A DNA stretch of 38,732 nt from a virus (taxonomy: Duplodnaviria; Heunggongvirae; Uroviricota; Caudoviricetes): the IMG/VR virus record IMGVR_UViG_2718218126_000001. One strand, written 5' to 3'. A model generated the notes under the pieces. That model was given only the letters and a program-made list of their open reading frames with translations, was not told where the DNA came from and made no database searches. The translations under genes were made by a program, and so were the position numbers. How positions within the stretch are numbered: position 1 is the stretch's first letter; each line of letters starts with the position of its first letter. This document shows positions 1-7,128 of this stretch, in pieces.

Positions 1-798
1 TTAATGAACATTCGTCGCCGAAAACGAGTCTGTATCATTAGTGCGATGCAGTCTCTGCAAAGGATCTTGTTGATAAAATTGGCAGAAACGTTGCCACAAT
101 GAAGGGAAACGAGGAGCAAAAAGTTCTGGGGCGCTAAAGAAATATTCAGAAAGTACGGCAAAACATTCAGCAGGATCACTGGCAGCATAAGCATCAATGC
201 TCGCCGCATTCTCGCCAACCAATTCGATTTCTTCCTGAATGTTGTTCATTGCAGCATGAAGATCGTGTTCCCAGCCAGCAACCTCACGCAACGGAATAAA
301 GGGAACTCCGCTGGCGCGATCGCCGTTACGGGTGTCCAGCTTATGAGCGACTTCATGAATAATCAGGTTAAAACCAGAAGCATCAAAAGAATCTTGTATA
401 TCCAACCAGTTCAAAACGATAGGCCCTTGCTGCCAGCTCTGACCTGACTGAACAATACGTTGGTTATGCACCAGACCGATATCGTCTTCCCATTCATCAT
501 CGACCACAAATGGCGCAGGATAAATTAAGACTTCATGAAAACCATCCAGCCATTCCAGTCCTAACTCCAGAACGGGTAGGCAAAATAGAAGTGCTATCCG
601 GCAGCTTCTTAATGAATCCAGTTCAAAGCCCTGTAAAGGAACAAGCCGCTTTTGCTGTAAAAAACGTTCGGCAAGAGTGACTAATTTGCTTTGTTCCTGT
701 TCCGTCAGACACGTTAAAAGGGGGATCGATAGTGCTTCCTGCCAGGGAAGGGCAGTTTGATGTGCTGATTCTTGTACTTTCCAGGGCCACTTAATCAT
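1..798 (-). CDS. mtfA: Mlc titration factor MtfA (host gene, complete; stop codon at 1-3)
   Basis: ORF 1..837 matches MtfA/YeeI over its full length ([20 protein letters not shown]..., HEVAHKLD zinc-peptidase-like motif). Start assigned to the internal ATG at 796-798, giving 265 aa. Confidence 0.85.
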
Positions 799-891
799 CG
801 TTTTGCTCGCAAACTCGTCACTTGAACAAAATTGCACGGACAGGGACTGTTAAAATGCCAAATTTCCTGGCATCATGGCAACCATCTGAAC

Positions 892-981
892 GGAGAGATG
901 CCGGAGCGGCTGAACGGACCGGTCTCGAAAACCGGAGTAGGGGCAACTCTACCGGGGGTTCAAATCCCCCTCTCTCCGCCA
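892..981 (+). tRNA. serU: tRNA-Ser (anticodon CGA), 90 nt with long variable arm and encoded CCA
   Basis: GGAGAGATGCCGGAGCGGCTGAACGGACCGGTCTCGAAAACCGGAGTAGGGGCAACTCTACCGGGGGTTCAAATCCCCCTCTCTCCGCCA. Anticodon loop CT-CGA-AA; class II tRNA architecture. Confidence 0.9.
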
Positions 982-1066: not shown

Positions 1067-2095
1067 TCACGGGTTTCTGCTCAGAACTGTGACATCCAGC
1101 ACCGGAATATCCAGAGTCGGAGAAACTGCAGGTTTGCGATCATACGTCAGCACCTGCGCCTCAGTTTTGTGACCAGAGAACAACTGCTTTTCTTTACTGC
1201 TTCCGTCGTAGTCTGAGATCCCCTTCGCTTTTAAATCGTGAAACGTTCCCGTAATCGGGTAGCCCAGCTTTTCACTTGCCGCCGCCCTGGCTTTACGCCA
1301 GATATCGTTAAATCCGGTATAACTGTATTGCCCGCCATATTTGTTACAGACCACGAAATGTTGTCCTCCCAACGATTTCGCCTGCTCAAGTGCGAACGTC
1401 AGTCGCTCTGAATACTGTTTGATCTGCTTTTTGCCAGTCTTACCCTGTTGGATAAACAAACCCTTACTCATAACCTGATCCCACGTCAGCTTTCGTATAT
1501 CGCCGATCCGCGTGGCGCACAGATAGGCGATCTCCATCGCGCACTGTAAAACGGGAGATGCCTCCTGATAAATTGCGATATATTCCTCGTCCGTGAAATA
1601 GTAGTCGCGGGGCTTGAGGGAAAATTTACTGACGCCCTGGCATGGATTCCCTTTTACGTATCCGCGTTCGTATCCCCAGCGGAATACTCGCGACATACTG
1701 GCTTTTTCATGGTTCGCCTGTGTTTTGCTTTTCAGCCCCCGCTTGTCCATATACAGCCGCACGTGAGCAGGTTTTATGTTGTCGGCTTTCATTTTCCCGA
1801 ACGCGGCGAGTAATTTCTTCTGGTGCTGCAGATAATCCTTTTGTGTACGCTGACCGAGTTCCAGATAGTAGGTGCTGTTGAGAAATTTGTTCCAGAGTTT
1901 ACTGAACGTCATGACATCAATAGCATCATTCAGGATCTCTTCGTATTTCACCCATACCTGAGCAATTGACAGATCATTAATTTTACCCAGCGTAATACAC
2001 TCTCGGGGCGTTGGTTTGAAATAATAGCTGTATTTGTTTTTATAAACGCGGGGTGGCAGCTTATTATCTTCCGCGCTTTTTCGTGTTCTGCTCAT
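1067..2095 (-). CDS. int: Phage integrase, tyrosine recombinase family
   Basis: 342 aa with RIGD, HDLKAKG and C-terminal LTYDRK-type catalytic Tyr region. Adjacent to tRNA; ATGA overlap with upstream gene. Confidence 0.9.
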   Translation of the reverse strand: MSRTRKSAEDNKLPPRVYKNKYSYYFKPTPRECITLGKINDLSIAQVWVKYEEILNDAIDVMTFSKLWNKFLNSTYYLELGQRTQKDYLQHQKKLLAAFGKMKADNIKPAHVRLYMDKRGLKSKTQANHEKASMSRVFRWGYERGYVKGNPCQGVSKFSLKPRDYYFTDEEYIAIYQEASPVLQCAMEIAYLCATRIGDIRKLTWDQVMSKGLFIQQGKTGKKQIKQYSERLTFALEQAKSLGGQHFVVCNKYGGQYSYTGFNDIWRKARAAASEKLGYPITGTFHDLKAKGISDYDGSSKEKQLFSGHKTEAQVLTYDRKPAVSPTLDIPVLDVTVLSRNP

Positions 2096-2310
2096 CAGAT
2101 TGCATCAAAATTTGGTTGTTCTTCTTCGGCAATCTGCACGGACCTTGCTCCGGACAGCGCAGCGTTTACATGCGTCCATGTGACGCGAGGTCGCCCATCG
2201 CGGCGTTTTACATAAGAGATCCCGGCACGGGTCAGGGCGCCGCATTGTTTTGACGGGAACTGGTAGCCGGTCAGTTCAACCAGTTCCTCGTCGTTTAACA
2301 GATCGTTCAT
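2095..2310 (-). CDS. DUF4224-like small protein (excisionase-like position)
   Basis: 71 aa with LVELTGYQFPSKQ motif typical of DUF4224 proteins found beside integrases. RBS GAGGAAAG upstream; stop overlaps int start. Confidence 0.5.
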   Translation of the reverse strand: MNDLLNDEELVELTGYQFPSKQCGALTRAGISYVKRRDGRPRVTWTHVNAALSGARSVQIAEEEQPNFDAI

Positions 2311-2519: not shown

Positions 2520-2702
2520 TTATTTCTGATTAGGCGTAATCAGTTCTGGTGGGGGGAATGCCGATTTCTCCCGCGTGACCTTAATGTTTTCTGGCAGGTG
2601 TAGCCCAAGTTCGCAGCGACTCCGTGCTTCAATAATGCCATTGGTACCATCGGCAAGTACCAGGTGAACCGCGTCACCACGCTTTAATGTGAGTTTAAGC
2701 AT
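2520..2702 (-). CDS. CsrA/RsmA-like small RNA-binding protein (putative)
   Basis: 60 aa: MLKLTLKRGD...GLHLPENIKVTREKSAF aligns by eye with CsrA MLILTRRVGE...GVNAPKEVSVHREEIY. 1-nt TAATG overlap with upstream gene. Confidence 0.4.
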   Translation of the reverse strand: MLKLTLKRGDAVHLVLADGTNGIIEARSRCELGLHLPENIKVTREKSAFPPPELITPNQK

Positions 2703-3271
2703 TAGCGTACCCTCAGCGAACGTTCGCCGCGTTCCAGATGTGCGCCTGGTACCGGGTTTAATAACTCGGCTGGTGGTGTTTCTCCACGCGCCAGTATTTC
2801 GGCGGCAACCGCCTCCGCAGATTCAATCACTTCTTTAATGGCTCGCTTGTTTGGTGTAATAACCGTTTCTACATCAACAAGTGACACGCCTTCATACTCA
2901 TCCGGGATCTTATCTTTGCTATCGATAATTACCCGGATAGCCCCCTGTGCATCAGTAAATGTGTTTTTTGCGGTTTTTAGTTTATCCAGGCCAGCAGCTT
3001 GCTGGCAGGCGAGCATATGCTTCCGAATTGCTTTTTCCTTGCCTTCAAAGGACGTCTTACGGGTAGCCAGGCGAGACATTTCTTCAGCGCAGGTACTGGC
3101 ATTGCCCTGTAAATTGCGGCAGATGACCATCATGGCGTCCAGTTTGTCTCCCAGTTCTCCTTCCATACCTTCAAGTGTGTCGGCGATCATCTCTGGCGTC
3201 AGTTCGTCGGAGGTTTCCAGCAGGTCAATCAGGCTGGCGTATTCTTTTGCAATAGCGATAGCGGTGCTCAT
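2702..3271 (-). CDS. Phage protein, Siphovirus Gp157-like (putative; recombination-module associated)
   Basis: 189 aa; N-terminal IAKEYASLIDLLETSDE...DTLEGMEGEL pattern recalled from the Gp157 family. RBS AGGAG; translationally coupled to neighbours. Confidence 0.45.
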   Translation of the reverse strand: MSTAIAIAKEYASLIDLLETSDELTPEMIADTLEGMEGELGDKLDAMMVICRNLQGNASTCAEEMSRLATRKTSFEGKEKAIRKHMLACQQAAGLDKLKTAKNTFTDAQGAIRVIIDSKDKIPDEYEGVSLVDVETVITPNKRAIKEVIESAEAVAAEILARGETPPAELLNPVPGAHLERGERSLRVR

Positions 3272-5484
3272 GCTGTTTGCTCCTGTGCGGCGGCGAGAGC
3301 GGCGAGGCGTTCGGTTTTGATGTCGCTGATACGGCGCAGACGTGATCCCAGATACGATGAATATTCTTTATCGCCTTTGGCTTCCGCTGCTTTCCTGTGT
3401 ACATCCACTTCGCGGGCGATGAGGCCAAATACCTTGTTTACTTCGTTGGCGGTTACCGCGGCGGCCAGCGTATTGGCAACGTTGATAAGCTTCTCATCCA
3501 GTTCCTTACGCAGACGGGTAGCATCTTCCGCATTTTCGCTGGCATTCTTGATATCAAACTCAGCTTTATTCCTCTGGCGGTATTCCGGATTGTCGTACAG
3601 GCCCATGAAAATATCGGCGCTGAATCCGAGAGGGGATAGCGCTTTCTTAACAGCATCCGTCCAGGATTTCTTCGGCGCTTCGCCGTCGCTTGTTGGTCCG
3701 TATTTAGTGTCGTAGATATAAGGTGTGCATCCGTAAGCCTCGGACTCACCGCGCACTCCATTCAATATGTACCAGACTCTAACTTTCATGGTGTGGTGCA
3801 TTTCACATAGGTACCCGCCAACACCGTCTTGAATCAGATCCCATTCTATTTTTTCACCAACCTGTTTTTTGCGAACTATCGGTGCGCCTTTATCAAAACG
3901 CTCTTCCACCACCTCTACACCCCAGCCAATACCAAACGGCCCAAATTCGCGAGTCGCTTTCATCGCTATATAAGTGCCGTTGATGGATGTGCCGCCGCCG
4001 TTCTGAGAGAAAGCACTGGTGAAGCGCTCATCGGTTTTGAATACGTTCTTCCACAATGCCAGGTTATCTGTGTCGTCGGAGTCCTTTAACTCCGTTTCGA
4101 TAGCTGAGATTGCATTCTGCCGCTTGTGCTCTTCGGTATGGACCCGCTCAACCAGCGCGTCAACGTTCTGCACCAGATCCTTTACCTGCTCGCTAAGTTT
4201 TTCTTGTGGAGGAGTCTCTTCTGCCAGGGTAATTGCTGCAGGTTCCCTCTGTGATACGGCGTTATTTTCAGGTACGTCATACACATGGCGAGGCGTGACA
4301 AACTGCTCACGCAACTGCTGCAAACTACGTTCTCCAGCATTTGCAGCTTCGCTTTTTTCGCCCTGATTTGAGGGTGTTTCTGACATCATCCCATCAATTG
4401 AGAATCGTCCGCCGCCGTGGTTGGTGACTTTTACATCATCCTTTGGTGCTGCTTCCTTTGGCTTCTCTTCAACAGCATTTGCATCACGCTGCCCGTTAGC
4501 TTGCAGCCAGTTGTCGATGTGACTGCGCAGGGATTGTGGGAAGTGGTACGTGTCTTTTGCGGGGGCGCTCTGAATAACACCGAATACTGATGCACGGTCA
4601 TAGGCAAGGATCTGATCCGTTGTGCGCAAGGCCATTGACCAGCGTTTAAAATCTTCCCTGTCCTGACTGATTATTTCGTCTGCCGCTTTCAGGATGCTGG
4701 GGGTGATTTTTTCCGGGCCAACGGGTAACAGGGCGCAGGCAATTTCACGATCCAGTGTGGCGTGAGTCTGTTGGTAAGGACGTGCGGATGCTGTTTCTGG
4801 TTTTACCTCCGGCAGCATTTCATCGCGTTTACCGGGATTCTCTACCCATTTTTTTATAAATTTGGAGATAGTCCAACTGGTCGGGTTTTGTTCCTGGGTA
4901 TCGCAACTTGCCAAAATTGCATGTACCAGATTATTCAATCCAGCAATATGCATGTACTCGATGGGCTTACACGCCACCATGGCATCAAGAACGATGCGGT
5001 TAAACGCGTCAACCTCATCCTCACTGTCAGTATCACTGTTGTCGAGCATCTCCAGGTATTCACGCGTCTGCGCAAGCAATTCACTGTCGACTTCGTTGGC
5101 ATCGTGGCTGAACAGCAGGACGGCGGCGAAGCGTTCACGAGCAGGCAGTTTCATCAGGTCGCTAACCTGTGAGATATCTGCTGAACTGCAACCTGAATCA
5201 ACAGGAGTGTTAACTACCCATCTCTCGCCATCAAAACTGTGTTCTGTGGCAAACGTCTCATCAAACTCACCGACGCCTGGGCGCGGTTGGCCCGGGGCAT
5301 CTTCCCAGATTTTAGGTTTGAAATAGTTGTCGCCGTGGTCAGGGTAGGCTTCCCACAATTTGCCGATGATGATGTTCTCGGCAACTTTTTTGTTAGGGGC
5401 GTCGATGGCGATGGCCAGCGCCGGGATCGCGCCGTTTTTGAGCGCACCTTTTTTCGCTTCTAACAAGCCGTTAAAAATGGTCAT
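3268..5484 (-). CDS. Large early protein with Rad52/Sak-type single-strand annealing domain and ~450-aa N-terminal extension
   Basis: 738 aa. Residues ~480-640 carry Rad52 signatures (GPFGIGWGVEV, KKSWTDAVKKALSPLGFSADIFMGLYD). RBS GAGGAAAG before the ATG at 5482-5484. Confidence 0.6.
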   Translation of the reverse strand: MTIFNGLLEAKKGALKNGAIPALAIAIDAPNKKVAENIIIGKLWEAYPDHGDNYFKPKIWEDAPGQPRPGVGEFDETFATEHSFDGERWVVNTPVDSGCSSADISQVSDLMKLPARERFAAVLLFSHDANEVDSELLAQTREYLEMLDNSDTDSEDEVDAFNRIVLDAMVACKPIEYMHIAGLNNLVHAILASCDTQEQNPTSWTISKFIKKWVENPGKRDEMLPEVKPETASARPYQQTHATLDREIACALLPVGPEKITPSILKAADEIISQDREDFKRWSMALRTTDQILAYDRASVFGVIQSAPAKDTYHFPQSLRSHIDNWLQANGQRDANAVEEKPKEAAPKDDVKVTNHGGGRFSIDGMMSETPSNQGEKSEAANAGERSLQQLREQFVTPRHVYDVPENNAVSQREPAAITLAEETPPQEKLSEQVKDLVQNVDALVERVHTEEHKRQNAISAIETELKDSDDTDNLALWKNVFKTDERFTSAFSQNGGGTSINGTYIAMKATREFGPFGIGWGVEVVEERFDKGAPIVRKKQVGEKIEWDLIQDGVGGYLCEMHHTMKVRVWYILNGVRGESEAYGCTPYIYDTKYGPTSDGEAPKKSWTDAVKKALSPLGFSADIFMGLYDNPEYRQRNKAEFDIKNASENAEDATRLRKELDEKLINVANTLAAAVTANEVNKVFGLIAREVDVHRKAAEAKGDKEYSSYLGSRLRRISDIKTERLAALAAAQEQTA

Positions 5485-5617
5485 TGGTCTTTCCTCATTA
5501 CAGGTCAGTGGTCTTTAGTAGGGGATTTCAACGGTATCTGGCGTGTATTCGATGCAAAGTAACTGAATCGCCCCGGGAATCCTGGAGACTAAACTCCTTG
5601 AGAGAGAGGTAAACAGG

Positions 5618-5944
5618 ATGACTAAAAATACGCGCTTTTCCCCTGAGGTCCGTCAGCGGGCCGTTCGTATGGTTATCGAAAGCCAGAATGACTATGACTC
5701 GCAGTGGGCGGCCATCAGCTCCATCGCCCCTAAAATCGGCTGTACGCCTGAGACCCTGCGTACCTGGCTGCGTCAGTATGAGCGCGATGCCGGTGCAGGT
5801 GACGGCGGACTGAGCACCACTGAACGTCAGCGTCTGAAGGAACTGGAGCGTGAAAACCGCGAACTGCGCCGCAGCAACGATATCCTGCGCCAGGCTTCCG
5901 CGTATTTTGCGAAGGCGGAGTTCGACCGCCTGTGGAAAAAATAG
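5618..5944 (+). CDS. IS3-family transposase OrfA (HTH)
   Basis: 108 aa [19 protein letters not shown]...[31 protein letters not shown]; leucine-zipper-like C-terminus typical of IS3 OrfA. Confidence 0.9.
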
Positions 5945-6831
5945 CGCCTCTGGTGGATACCCTGCGTGGTGCGCACGGGGTCGGACCGGTATGCCACGAG
6001 CTGGCTGTCGCCCCGTCAACGTATTACCGGCATCGTGCGCATCAACGGCATCCGGATAAACGCAGTCAGCGGGCACAGCGTGATGACCTGCTGAAGCCGG
6101 AGATACAGCGCGTGTACGATGAAAACCACAGCGTGTACGGTGTGCGCAAGGTCTGGCGCCAGTTGTTGCGTGAGGGGGTGACCGTGGCCAGGTGCACAGT
6201 AGAACGGCTGATGAAGGTGATGGGGCTTGCCGGTGTGCGCCGGGGTAAAAAGGTCCGCACCACAGTCAGCCGGAAAGAAGCCGCTGCGGGTGACCGGGTG
6301 AACCGCCAGTTCGTGGCAGAACGCCCCGACCAGCTGTGGGTGGCTGACTTCACGTATGTGAGCACCTGGCAGGGCTTCGCTTACGTGGCGTTCATCATCG
6401 ATGTGTTCGCCGGCGTCATTGTGGGCTGGCGGGTCTCATCGTCGATGAAAACGACGTTCGTGCTGGATGCACTGGAGCAGGCGCTGTGGGCCCGTCGCCC
6501 GTCGGGCACCATCCATCACTCAGATAAGGGGTCACAATATGTGTCGCTGGCATACACTCAGCGGCTTAAGGATGCAGAGTTGCTGGCGTCAACCGGCAGC
6601 ACAGGCGACTCATATGACAACGCGATGGCGGAGAGCATCAACGGACTTTATAAAGCGGAGGTGATACATCGTAAGAGCTGGAAAAACCGCGCCGAAGTGG
6701 AACTGGCCACACTGACGTGGGTGGACTGGTACAATAACCGACGGTTGCTGGAACGACTGGGTCATATCCCGCCGGCAGAAGCGGAAAAGGCATATTACGC
6801 TTCCATCGGAAATGGTGGTCTGGCAGCCTGA
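5932..6831 (+). CDS. IS3-family transposase OrfB (DDE catalytic domain), expressed as OrfAB by -1 frameshift in the A-run at 5936-5941
   Basis: 299 aa in the -1 frame relative to orfA, overlapping at TGGAAAAAATAG. Contains [18 protein letters not shown] and [15 protein letters not shown] motifs of the DDE core. Confidence 0.85.
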
Positions 6832-6873
6832 GTTCACAGATAAAACACTCTCCCGGAAAACCGGGGCGGTTCA

Positions 6874-7128
6874 AACGCGATGGCGGAGAGCATCAACGGA
6901 CTTTATAAAGCGGAGGTGATACATCGTAAGAGCTGGAAAAACCGCGCCGAAGTGGAACTGGCCACACTGACGTGGGTGGACTGGTACAATAACCGACGGT
7001 TGCTGGAACGACTGGGTCATATCCCGCCGGCAGAAGCGGAAAAGGCATATTACGCTTCCATCGGAAATGGTGGTCTGGCAGCCTGAGTTCACAGATAAAA
7101 CACTCTCCCGGAAAACCGGGGCGGTTCA
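6874..7128 (+). repeat. Tandem 255-bp duplicate of the IS right end (copy of 6619..6873), including a second right terminal repeat
   Basis: Exact repeat seen in sequence; ORF 6880..7086 duplicates the last 68 aa of OrfB. Most likely a remnant of a second IS copy after rearrangement. Confidence 0.85.

Follow-up and report, generated by a model that had tools for sequence, protein, structure and literature searches.

A fused YdfE_N and Rad52-type protein paired with Gp157 as the probable strand-annealing recombinase of a lambdoid prophage

The locus and its genes

The window analyzed here is the whole 38,732-nt stretch of the viral record IMGVR_UViG_2718218126_000001, in which a 738-aa open reading frame (ORF) from a lambdoid prophage of E. 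coli is followed by a gene of the Gp157 family and a 60-aa ORF (Table 1). The 738-aa ORF lies where the recombination (Rec) module canonically stands in the early-left operon, with the immunity region on one side and xis-int on the other, and a candidate Shine-Dalgarno sequence, GAGGAAAG, lies 6 nt 5' of its ATG. The upstream regulatory region has been lost to an IS element in this window, and this copy of the gene may therefore be silent. At the other end of the cluster, the place of the 60-aa ORF is held by a DUF1317 ORF in two Yersinia loci.

Table 1. Positions of the genes, domains and motif in the window
Feature	Positions	Strand	Remarks
60-aa ORF	2520-2702	-	phrog_2482; overlaps the Gp157 stop by 1 nt
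Gp157-family gene, 189 aa	2702-3271	-	start overlaps the stop of the putative annealase gene by 4 bp
738-aa ORF	3268-5484	-	YdfE_N-type N-terminal region, linker, Rad52-fold putative annealase and helical tail
C-terminal three-helix tail	3268-3588	-	residues 633-738; also in standalone homologs
Rad52-fold core, predicted single-strand annealing	3589-4074	-	residues 471-632
Linker	4075-4488	-	residues 333-470; acidic, net charge -11
Conserved linker motif NHGGGRFSIDGMM	4384-4422	-	residues 355-367
Domain B	4489-4767	-	residues 240-332; helical, common to the RecE N-terminal region (~261-370)
Domain M	4810-5163	-	residues 108-225; acidic, helical, net charge -11
Domain A	5200-5484	-	residues 1-95; small alpha/beta, highly conserved; E. 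coli K-12 YdfE has a homologous N-terminus

The 738-aa ORF is an intact gene, neither a chance frame nor a mis-joined gene pair. Unbroken fused ORFs of 584-739 aa were found in 27 species-level genomes and in phage ZF40, which disposes of the alternative, raised in an earlier note on this DNA, that the frame represents two separate genes. Among 5426 complete E. coli genomes, 620 (about one in nine) carried DNA of the gene at an identity of at least 90%, 449 of the 620 with a coverage of at least 80%, and the gene also occurs in very many Salmonella genomes in addition to phage ZF40. Comparison with two close relatives gave dN/dS values of 0.07-0.18 over residues 1-332 and 0.15-0.17 over the C-terminal tail. 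The Rad52 core, for which only one of the two relatives yielded a value, gave 0.13, and the linker about 1.0 (one comparison with few substitutions). Regarding internal starts for a free Rad52 domain, no Met was present at the boundary (residues 461-480), and no convincing Shine-Dalgarno sequence was found for M366/M367.

The Rad52-type core and its tail

Both Rad52 signatures that had been noticed at residues ~480-640 were confirmed: GPFGIGWGVEV spans residues 515-525, and KKSWTDAVKKALSPLGFSADIFMGLYD spans residues 605-631. The predicted structure of the core adopts the fold of the RAD52 N-terminal domain, with a beta-hairpin, a three-stranded sheet and a long basic helix. The approximately 100 additional C-terminal residues, previously left without a function, correspond to the three-helix tail. 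At the sequence level, the full-length protein matched no Pfam family at E ≤ 1, and a PDB sequence search with the whole protein returned nothing but noise. The isolated Rad52 domain scored 13.7 bits against PF04098 (Rad52_Rad22; E 0.06), below the cut-off of 20.3 bits. The proposed Rad52/Sak-type domain is upheld by the fold and by family-level matches to PF04098 (35 of 42 homologs at E ≤ 0.1, best 2.5e-6, and precomputed matches on two homologs), but not by the protein's own score. The Rad52 profile signal emerged only after domain isolation and family collection.

We take the inner ssDNA-binding groove of human RAD52 to include K152 and R153, and also R55, Y65 and R156. In a profile alignment with an E value of only ~0.85, K613 and K614 align with K152 and R153, Y65 and R156 are both replaced by Ser, and R55 lies beyond the aligned stretch. 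Among the 42 homologs, K613 is nearly invariant and K614 invariant. RAD52, Sak and Mgm101 oligomerize, bind ssDNA and anneal complementary strands; because of the shared Rad52 fold, we assign annealing activity to this protein, and by analogy residues ~471-632 would oligomerize, bind ssDNA and anneal complementary strands in the same manner. Judging from the predicted structure and the family profiles, the 738-aa protein is a genuine annealase of the Rad52 type and a fusion variant that is new.

The Gp157 partner

The adjoining gene had been described as Gp157-like, and this was borne out by a match of its 189-aa product to PF05565 (Sipho_Gp157) with an E value of 8.3e-27 and 94.6 bits (cut-off 28.6). 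When 77 Rad52-like loci were collected (one genome per species), Gp157 lay directly downstream of the Rad52-like gene in 72 of them and overlapped it by 4 bp in 60, and all 18 diverse Gp157 partners examined matched PF05565. YdfE_N is present on 27 of the 77 Rad52-like proteins, these 27 belonging to Enterobacterales with one exception; the others are standalone proteins of ~240-290 aa. The 4-bp start/stop overlap suggests translational coupling of the annealase with Gp157, and the two genes constitute a conserved cassette. Since the standalone homologs retain both the tail and Gp157, Gp157 most likely acts with the Rad52 core or tail rather than with the N-terminus. A profile search found no relative of Gp157 in the PDB. 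The 'Mu Gam-like' PHROG label of Gp157 found no support at the sequence level either, as none of the 18 partners matched a Mu Gam family at E ≤ 1.

No cognate exonuclease gene adjoins the annealase gene, that position being taken by Gp157. Because the module encodes no nuclease, the cassette appears to replace the usual exonuclease-annealase pair, and resection would need host nucleases unless the system works on ssDNA at replication forks, possibly in the style of P22-type systems. The absence of a cognate exonuclease and the strict coupling to the coiled-coil Gp157 protein would also suit a Rad52-like domain that serves replication restart or initiation, or ssDNA protection together with Gp157, with recombination being incidental; Sak-type annealases are reported to be needed for phage replication in Staphylococcus (PMC5499656). 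We consider such a role unlikely, because the gene sits in the Rec-module position, the RAD52 groove lysines are kept (in the alignment with E ~0.85), and nuclease-less annealase modules that promote recombination, such as the P22 type, are known (PMC12315714).

The N-terminal region and linker

The long N-terminal extension is real and comprises ~470 residues, namely YdfE_N and the linker. It had been described as acidic and devoid of an obvious motif. The acidity was confirmed, with residues 1-332 being uniformly acidic (net charge -17) and this character being kept across the family, but a recognizable family does exist, consisting of YdfE_N with a domain shared with RecE. PF27430 (YdfE_N) has precomputed matches on a 98%-identical cluster (P0080) and on all listed N-terminal homologs, through which the 738-aa protein is assigned to the family indirectly, and BLASTP aligned the N-terminal region with K-12 YdfE at an E value of 1e-8. 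Residues 1-332 make up three acidic, folded domains of the YdfE_N type under purifying selection. Domain M is missing in the Xenorhabdus/Photorhabdus versions and doubled in another protein (P0090). Domain B (pLDDT 93-97) matched phrog_607 with an E value of 2.5e-24, and residues 232-336 matched NF007259 (exodeoxyribonuclease VIII) with an E value of 2.5e-12, far below the whole-protein cut-off of 1269 bits of this equivalog model. Since the BLASTP match to K-12 RecE residues 263-332 was weak (E 0.011), the link to RecE rests on the profile matches. Structure searches with the N-terminal region found no informative match.

The linker is predicted to be a flexible tether (pLDDT < 60 at residues 341-365, its modeled start, with residues 366-460 outside the model) and appears to evolve near-neutrally on the single dN/dS comparison given above. 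Its motif NHGGGRFSIDGMM is shared with YdfE, RecE-nuclease and other Rad52 fusions, and N355, G359, F361, S362 and M367 are invariant in A2; this spread over many architectures was seen with a local HMM built from the YdfE linker and C-terminal region. Our literature searches found nothing on PF27430, PF27432 or PF06630 and no functional study of YdfE.

The earlier note had proposed a fusion with a nuclease or an anti-host domain. The nuclease part did not survive, as neither profile nor structure searches detected a nuclease family or fold in residues 1-332. Database labels nevertheless describe such proteins as exonucleases (phrog_2489 'exonuclease', and in some RefSeq entries 'exonuclease family protein' or 'phage-associated endonuclease'), and residues 232-336 are truly homologous to the NF007259 model. 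However, the homologous segment of RecE (positions 261-370) belongs to its N-terminal, non-catalytic part, the Rad52 fold sits where RecE has its nuclease domain, and no nuclease family or fold was found anywhere in the 738-aa protein, so that an exonuclease is highly improbable. The labels look like annotation spill-over: a standalone 273-aa Rad52-like protein (P0011) also matches the 'exonuclease' PHROGs, which points to spread by annotation transfer.

As for an anti-host function, the acidic N-terminal region might imitate DNA or serve as a decoy, blocking a host nuclease (for example RecBCD) or shielding the annealase from defence systems that recognize annealing proteins, and a fusion in cis would let this protection travel with the recombinase. 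The acidity of residues 1-332, and of Domain M in particular, is conserved in the family, the fusions are confined to Enterobacterales with the one exception, the module is without a recognized Gam or Abc2 inhibitor, and several defence systems reportedly recognize annealing proteins of phages (PMC13581612). On the other hand, structure searches showed no resemblance of the N-terminal region to DNA mimics or Gam proteins, nothing points directly to a host target, and the N-module extends beyond annealases to nucleases and YdfE_C; we therefore regard an anti-host role as rather unlikely.

Module swapping and overall interpretation

In other prophage proteins of Enterobacterales, the same N-module is fused to RecE-type PD-(D/E)XK nucleases (P0230 carries the complete module), DEDD 3'-5' exonucleases, YdfE_C and RecT. 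The RecT fusion is a single member according to Pfam, and phmmer with K-12 RecE/RecT did not identify it. On the basis of exclusion and of this domain swapping, the N-module is most likely a non-catalytic adaptor, that is, a protein-interaction or targeting unit that would deliver the attached DNA-end- or ssDNA-processing effector, and its role in the 738-aa protein is most likely the same as that of the N-terminal region in full-length RecE.

Taking these results together, the gene can with reasonable confidence be read, from its sequence and structural model, as coding for a lambdoid prophage's strand-annealing recombinase, built from a Rad52 core and a YdfE_N module within a Gp157 cassette. 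The Rad52-type domain, the extension and the Gp157 neighbor of the earlier note are retained in this reading and the nuclease fusion is not. More tentatively, YdfE_N might be a portable targeting module in lambdoid phages of Enterobacterales that brings interchangeable effectors for DNA ends or ssDNA (a RecT or Rad52-type annealase, a 5'-3' or 3'-5' exonuclease, or YdfE_C) to a single common site or partner and supplies the proficiency in linear-linear recombination of full-length RecE, which the nuclease domain alone is without. Separately, the Rad52-like protein and Gp157 might, in the same tentative proposal, form a distinct nuclease-free two-component recombinase with Gp157 as the counterpart of an exonuclease or end-protection partner.

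A gene labelled 'hypothetical' or 'exonuclease' is now read as the prophage's annealase, and counts of lambdoid recombination modules would shift, because an annealase would have to be added for some phages that are now counted without one. What the ~600 N-terminal residues of RecE do has, to our knowledge, been asked since the 1990s; with some of them now assigned to a module that recurs on both nucleases and annealases, natural domain-swap variants are available for testing it. The compact Rad52-Gp157 cassette, which has no exonuclease of its own, could possibly serve as a recombineering tool.

Comparison with known systems

Compared with the Rad52/Sak family (human RAD52, yeast Mgm101, Sak of Staphylococcus phage 80alpha and Sak of Lactococcus phage ul36), to which its identity is a marginal 17%, the 738-aa protein adds the ~470-residue N-terminal extension and a distinct three-helix tail, and its obligate partner is Gp157 instead of an exonuclease or SSB. 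RecE of the Rac prophage shares more of the arrangement: it has the same position in the lambdoid early-left operon, its residues ~261-370 share the helical domain with residues 232-336 here, and both proteins consist of a long N-terminal region, a linker and a C-terminal effector. The effector differs, with the PD-(D/E)XK nuclease (residues 564-866 of RecE; PMC11611040) replaced by a Rad52-fold annealase and RecT replaced by Gp157 as the partner. K-12 RecE matched PF12684 at 615-850 (E 4e-28) and, in its N-terminal part, PF06630 (Exonuc_VIII; E 6e-98), neither of which matched the 738-aa protein.

YdfE of the Qin prophage (YdfE_N and YdfE_C) has the same three-domain PF27430 module and the same linker motif and likewise sits directly upstream of xis-int in its operon, whereas it carries YdfE_C in place of the Rad52-like domain and the examined YdfE loci are without Gp157. 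In our view, YdfE probably corresponds to the nuclease-less 'RecE-2' proteins of PMC12315714. The inducible Pectobacterium phage ZF40 shows an identical architecture and gene order, although its gp07 is only 35% identical to the 738-aa protein: gp07 consists of YdfE_N (1-330, E 2.7e-103) and the Rad52-like region (450-718, E 1e-84), and gp06 is a Gp157 that overlaps it by 4 bp and is followed by xis-int. The pair is labelled 'exonuclease' and 'Mu Gam-like end protection' in databases, and Table 1 of PMC12315714 lists ZF40 with an anti-RecBCD function and without annealase or nuclease, an entry that would change on the present analysis. Finally, lambda Red (Exo-Beta-Gam) and other two-component recombinases are likewise early-left-operon recombination modules centered on a Rad52/Beta/Erf/RecT-superfamily annealase, and the annealase of the lambda Red type has a helical C-terminal domain, as does the protein described here.

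A predicted Rad52-type annealase encoded by a single gene

The subject protein of 738 aa comprises an N-module (residues 1-332), a linker (333-470), a Rad52 core (471-632) and a tail (633-738). The motifs cited in the earlier note as signatures of a Rad52/Sak protein are located at residues 515-525 and 605-631, and searches with residues 461-738 recovered 79 homologs, among which standalone proteins of 240-275 aa are numerous. A Pfam search with the full-length protein gave no match and the window protein reached only E 0.06 against PF04098 (Rad52_Rad22), whereas 35 of the 42 sequences in an alignment of C-terminal half homologs (A1) matched this family at E ≤ 0.1, the best at 2.5e-6. The C-terminal half aligned coherently to RAD52 residues 56-159, with the conserved groove lysines K613/K614 opposite K152/R153, and AlphaFold2 with A1 predicted a Rad52 fold with a pLDDT of 92. 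The Rad52/Sak reading was right, and the fold assignment is well supported by the predicted structure and weakly by sequence. The tail (~633-738) was modeled as three long helices, whose structural matches were limited to generic helical bundles, and is retained in standalone homologs.

Features of the window and domains of the 738-aa protein
Feature	Position	Strand	Remarks
mtfA	1-837	-	
tRNA-Ser	892-981		
Integrase	1067-2095	-	
DUF4224 protein	2095-2310	-	Position of the excisionase gene in related phage ZF40
60-aa ORF	2520-2702	-	phrog_2482; 1-nt overlap with Gp157 stop
Gp157-family gene, 189 aa	2702-3271	-	PF05565 Sipho_Gp157, E 8.3e-27
738-aa ORF	3268-5484	-	Good ribosome-binding site
IS3-family element	about 5566-7128		orfA 5618-5944, orfB 5932-6831
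Domain A	residues 1-95		alpha/beta
Domain M	residues 108-225		Helical, net charge -11
Domain B	residues 240-332		Helical

The alternative that the ORF represents two separate genes is contradicted by uninterrupted fused ORFs of 584-739 aa in 27 species-level genomes, in many Salmonella clusters (746-757 aa) and in phage ZF40; three more loci carry frameshifted, split versions. The 738-aa ORF is a genuine single gene.

The N-terminal half is a RecE-like module without a nuclease

All homologs of residues 1-460 carried a precomputed match to PF27430, which a database look-up gave as YdfE_N (PF27432 being YdfE_C). Domain A was 33% identical over 72 residues (E 1e-8) to the product of the IS-truncated K-12 pseudogene ydfE, and residues 232-336 matched positions 261-370 of the exodeoxyribonuclease VIII model NF007259 (E 2.5e-12), phrog_607 and, weakly, residues 263-332 of K-12 RecE. 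This stretch lies in the N-terminal region of RecE, whereas the RecE nuclease occupies residues 564-866 (PMC11611040); PF12684 matched K-12 RecE at 615-850. The idea of a nuclease fusion is wrong; the likeness to RecE lies apart from its nuclease.

AlphaFold2 with a diverse 31-sequence alignment of the N-terminal region (A4) gave a pLDDT of 86 and a pTM of 0.45, a pattern that indicates three confidently predicted domains whose mutual positions are not fixed by the model; confidence was low beyond residue ~340. Domain M is missing in Xenorhabdus and Photorhabdus fusions of 584-614 aa (loci L022, L024, L026, L027, L029 and L033) and doubled in an 804-aa Salmonella protein (P0090), and domains A, M and B thus behave as separable units. 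The dN/dS over residues 1-332 was 0.07-0.18 against two close relatives, comparable to that of the Rad52 core (0.13, measurable against one relative only) and of the tail (0.15-0.17, two close relatives), while the linker gave ~1.0 in one comparison with few substitutions. The N-terminal region is folded, under selection and not a nuclease. Its acidity, pointed out in the earlier note, amounts to a net charge of -17 over residues 1-332, is kept family-wide and argues against direct DNA binding.

Within the fast-evolving, low-confidence linker stands the conserved motif NHGGGRFSIDGMM (residues 355-367, window 4384-4422; consensus G-x-G-x-F-S-[VI]-[DE]-x-[LM]), which is found again in YdfE, ZF40 gp07 and the RecE-nuclease fusions and may be a linear interaction motif.

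The N-module is exchanged among effectors

An exhaustive phmmer search of 1.84 billion cluster representatives with residues 1-345 found 138 proteins, 26 of which carried a Rad52-like domain (local HMM). A Pfam effector scan of the 65 others that were at least 400 aa long detected Exonuc_VIII in 30, a RecE-type PDDEXK domain in 13, an Rv2179c-like DEDD 3'-5' exonuclease in 11, RNase_T in two and RecT in one, and a local HMM built from the YdfE linker and C-terminal region detected YdfE_C in ~20 proteins. For example, a 921-aa protein (P0230) joins domains A through B of the subject protein (residues 17-326) to a RecE-type nuclease, and P0258 joins domain B to a DEDD exonuclease. The N-module is therefore exchanged among effectors.

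Full-length YdfE (YdfE_N plus YdfE_C, ~620 aa), named 'exodeoxyribonuclease VIII' by NCBI, was found in Enterobacter prophages (L006/L007, 5001-6860), where it is the sole Rec-like gene ahead of xis-int and nearby annealase, nuclease and Gp157 genes are absent. YdfE_C of this protein had no match among local Pfam models.

The Rad52-Gp157 cassette and its distribution

The 738-aa and 189-aa ORFs share a 4-bp overlap, and the Pfam match of the latter bears out the Gp157-like neighbor. When one genome was scanned for each species, 77 of the 80 loci returned had an intact Rad52-like ORF, with a Gp157-family gene directly downstream in 72 and the same 4-bp overlap in 60. YdfE_N fusions accounted for 27 of the 77 and came from Escherichia, Serratia, Pectobacterium, Yersinia, Xenorhabdus, Photorhabdus, Providencia, Rouxiella, Izhakiella, Enterobacter and one record labeled Martelella; the rest were standalone (241-292 aa), mostly from Pseudomonas, with Hahella, Stutzerimonas and several MAGs, and isolated phages, Pseudomonas phage F116 for one, encode standalone versions as well. 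Gp157 accompanies the Rad52 core and tail with or without the N-module, and YdfE loci and Rac RecE have the N-module but no Gp157; because each occurs without the other, they are independent accessories. DUF1317 occupies the position of the 60-aa ORF in two Yersinia loci, and the cassette may therefore have a conserved third small member.

All of 18 diverse Gp157 partners matched PF05565 and none matched a Mu Gam family, so 'Mu Gam-like end protection', as PHROG labels this gene, lacks sequence support. In Firmicutes phages, Gp157, Mu Gam, DUF2483 and DUF1351 genes take the equivalent position beside erf and sak4, from which analogous functions were inferred (PMC8093625).

In the Martelella alba record (L014; an alphaproteobacterium), a 12-kb scaffold carries a fusion of YdfE_N with a Rad52-like domain that shares 62% identity with the E. 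coli protein and could reflect contamination or recent transfer. Among isolated phages, the full-length homolog nearest to the E. coli protein (52.5% identity at 98% coverage) was in vB_SmeS_BUCT708 and BUCT709 (H54/H55), whose recorded host, Stenotrophomonas, is outside the Enterobacterales range of other fusions.

Prophage setting

The window is an E. coli lambdoid prophage inserted at tRNA-Ser(cga), adjoining mtfA, and the 738-aa ORF and Gp157 gene are the final two large genes of its early-left operon. Of 5426 complete E. coli genomes, 620 contain DNA at least 90% identical. An IS3-family element stands in place of ~7.4 kb that E. coli strains whose flanks are 100% identical possess; in one relative this stretch holds repressor, cro-like, YdfT/YdaT-type, RepO and DnaB genes; the prophage is therefore probably defective. 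The 738-aa gene is intact, with its native upstream region lost. The 3' end of the element carries an exact 255-bp tandem duplication (6619-6873 = 6874-7128), which could be genuine or an assembly artifact.

Proposed role and comparison with known systems

The results establish the fold, the conservation of the groove lysines, the coupling to Gp157, the lack of a nuclease and the modular spread of the N-region. Beyond these, we propose that the Rad52-type protein would oligomerize and anneal ssDNA with Gp157 as its working partner, and that resection would be left to the host or the system would act at replication forks. More tentatively, the acidic N-module might serve protein interaction or targeting, as a counterpart of the RecE part that enhances linear-linear recombination. 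The N-module might instead act against the host, as the earlier note had suggested. The fusion offers a handle on the unexplained N-terminal region of RecE.

The fusion also exposes widespread mis-annotation. The 'exonuclease' label (phrog_2489, phrog_7838 and several RefSeq and GenBank records) is attached to proteins that have no nuclease domain, among them P0011 and about 100 Vibrio phage records, which are standalone and Rad52-like (~240-275 aa); it probably spread by annotation transfer through the RecE-like segment of the fusions.

Rad52-type annealases are established in phages, lambdoid ones included, (PMC2896510, PMC12315714), and the latter gives ZF40 an anti-RecBCD function, no annealase and no nuclease. 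Yet ZF40 gp07, like the subject protein, combines YdfE_N (E 2.7e-103) with a domain of the Rad52-like type (E 1e-84); its neighbor gp06, like the 189-aa gene product, is a Gp157. Because ZF40 is entered there without an annealase, the fusion appears to have been overlooked as one so far, the supplementary tables of PMC12315714 aside. The protein is of a known kind, and what is new here is its architecture.
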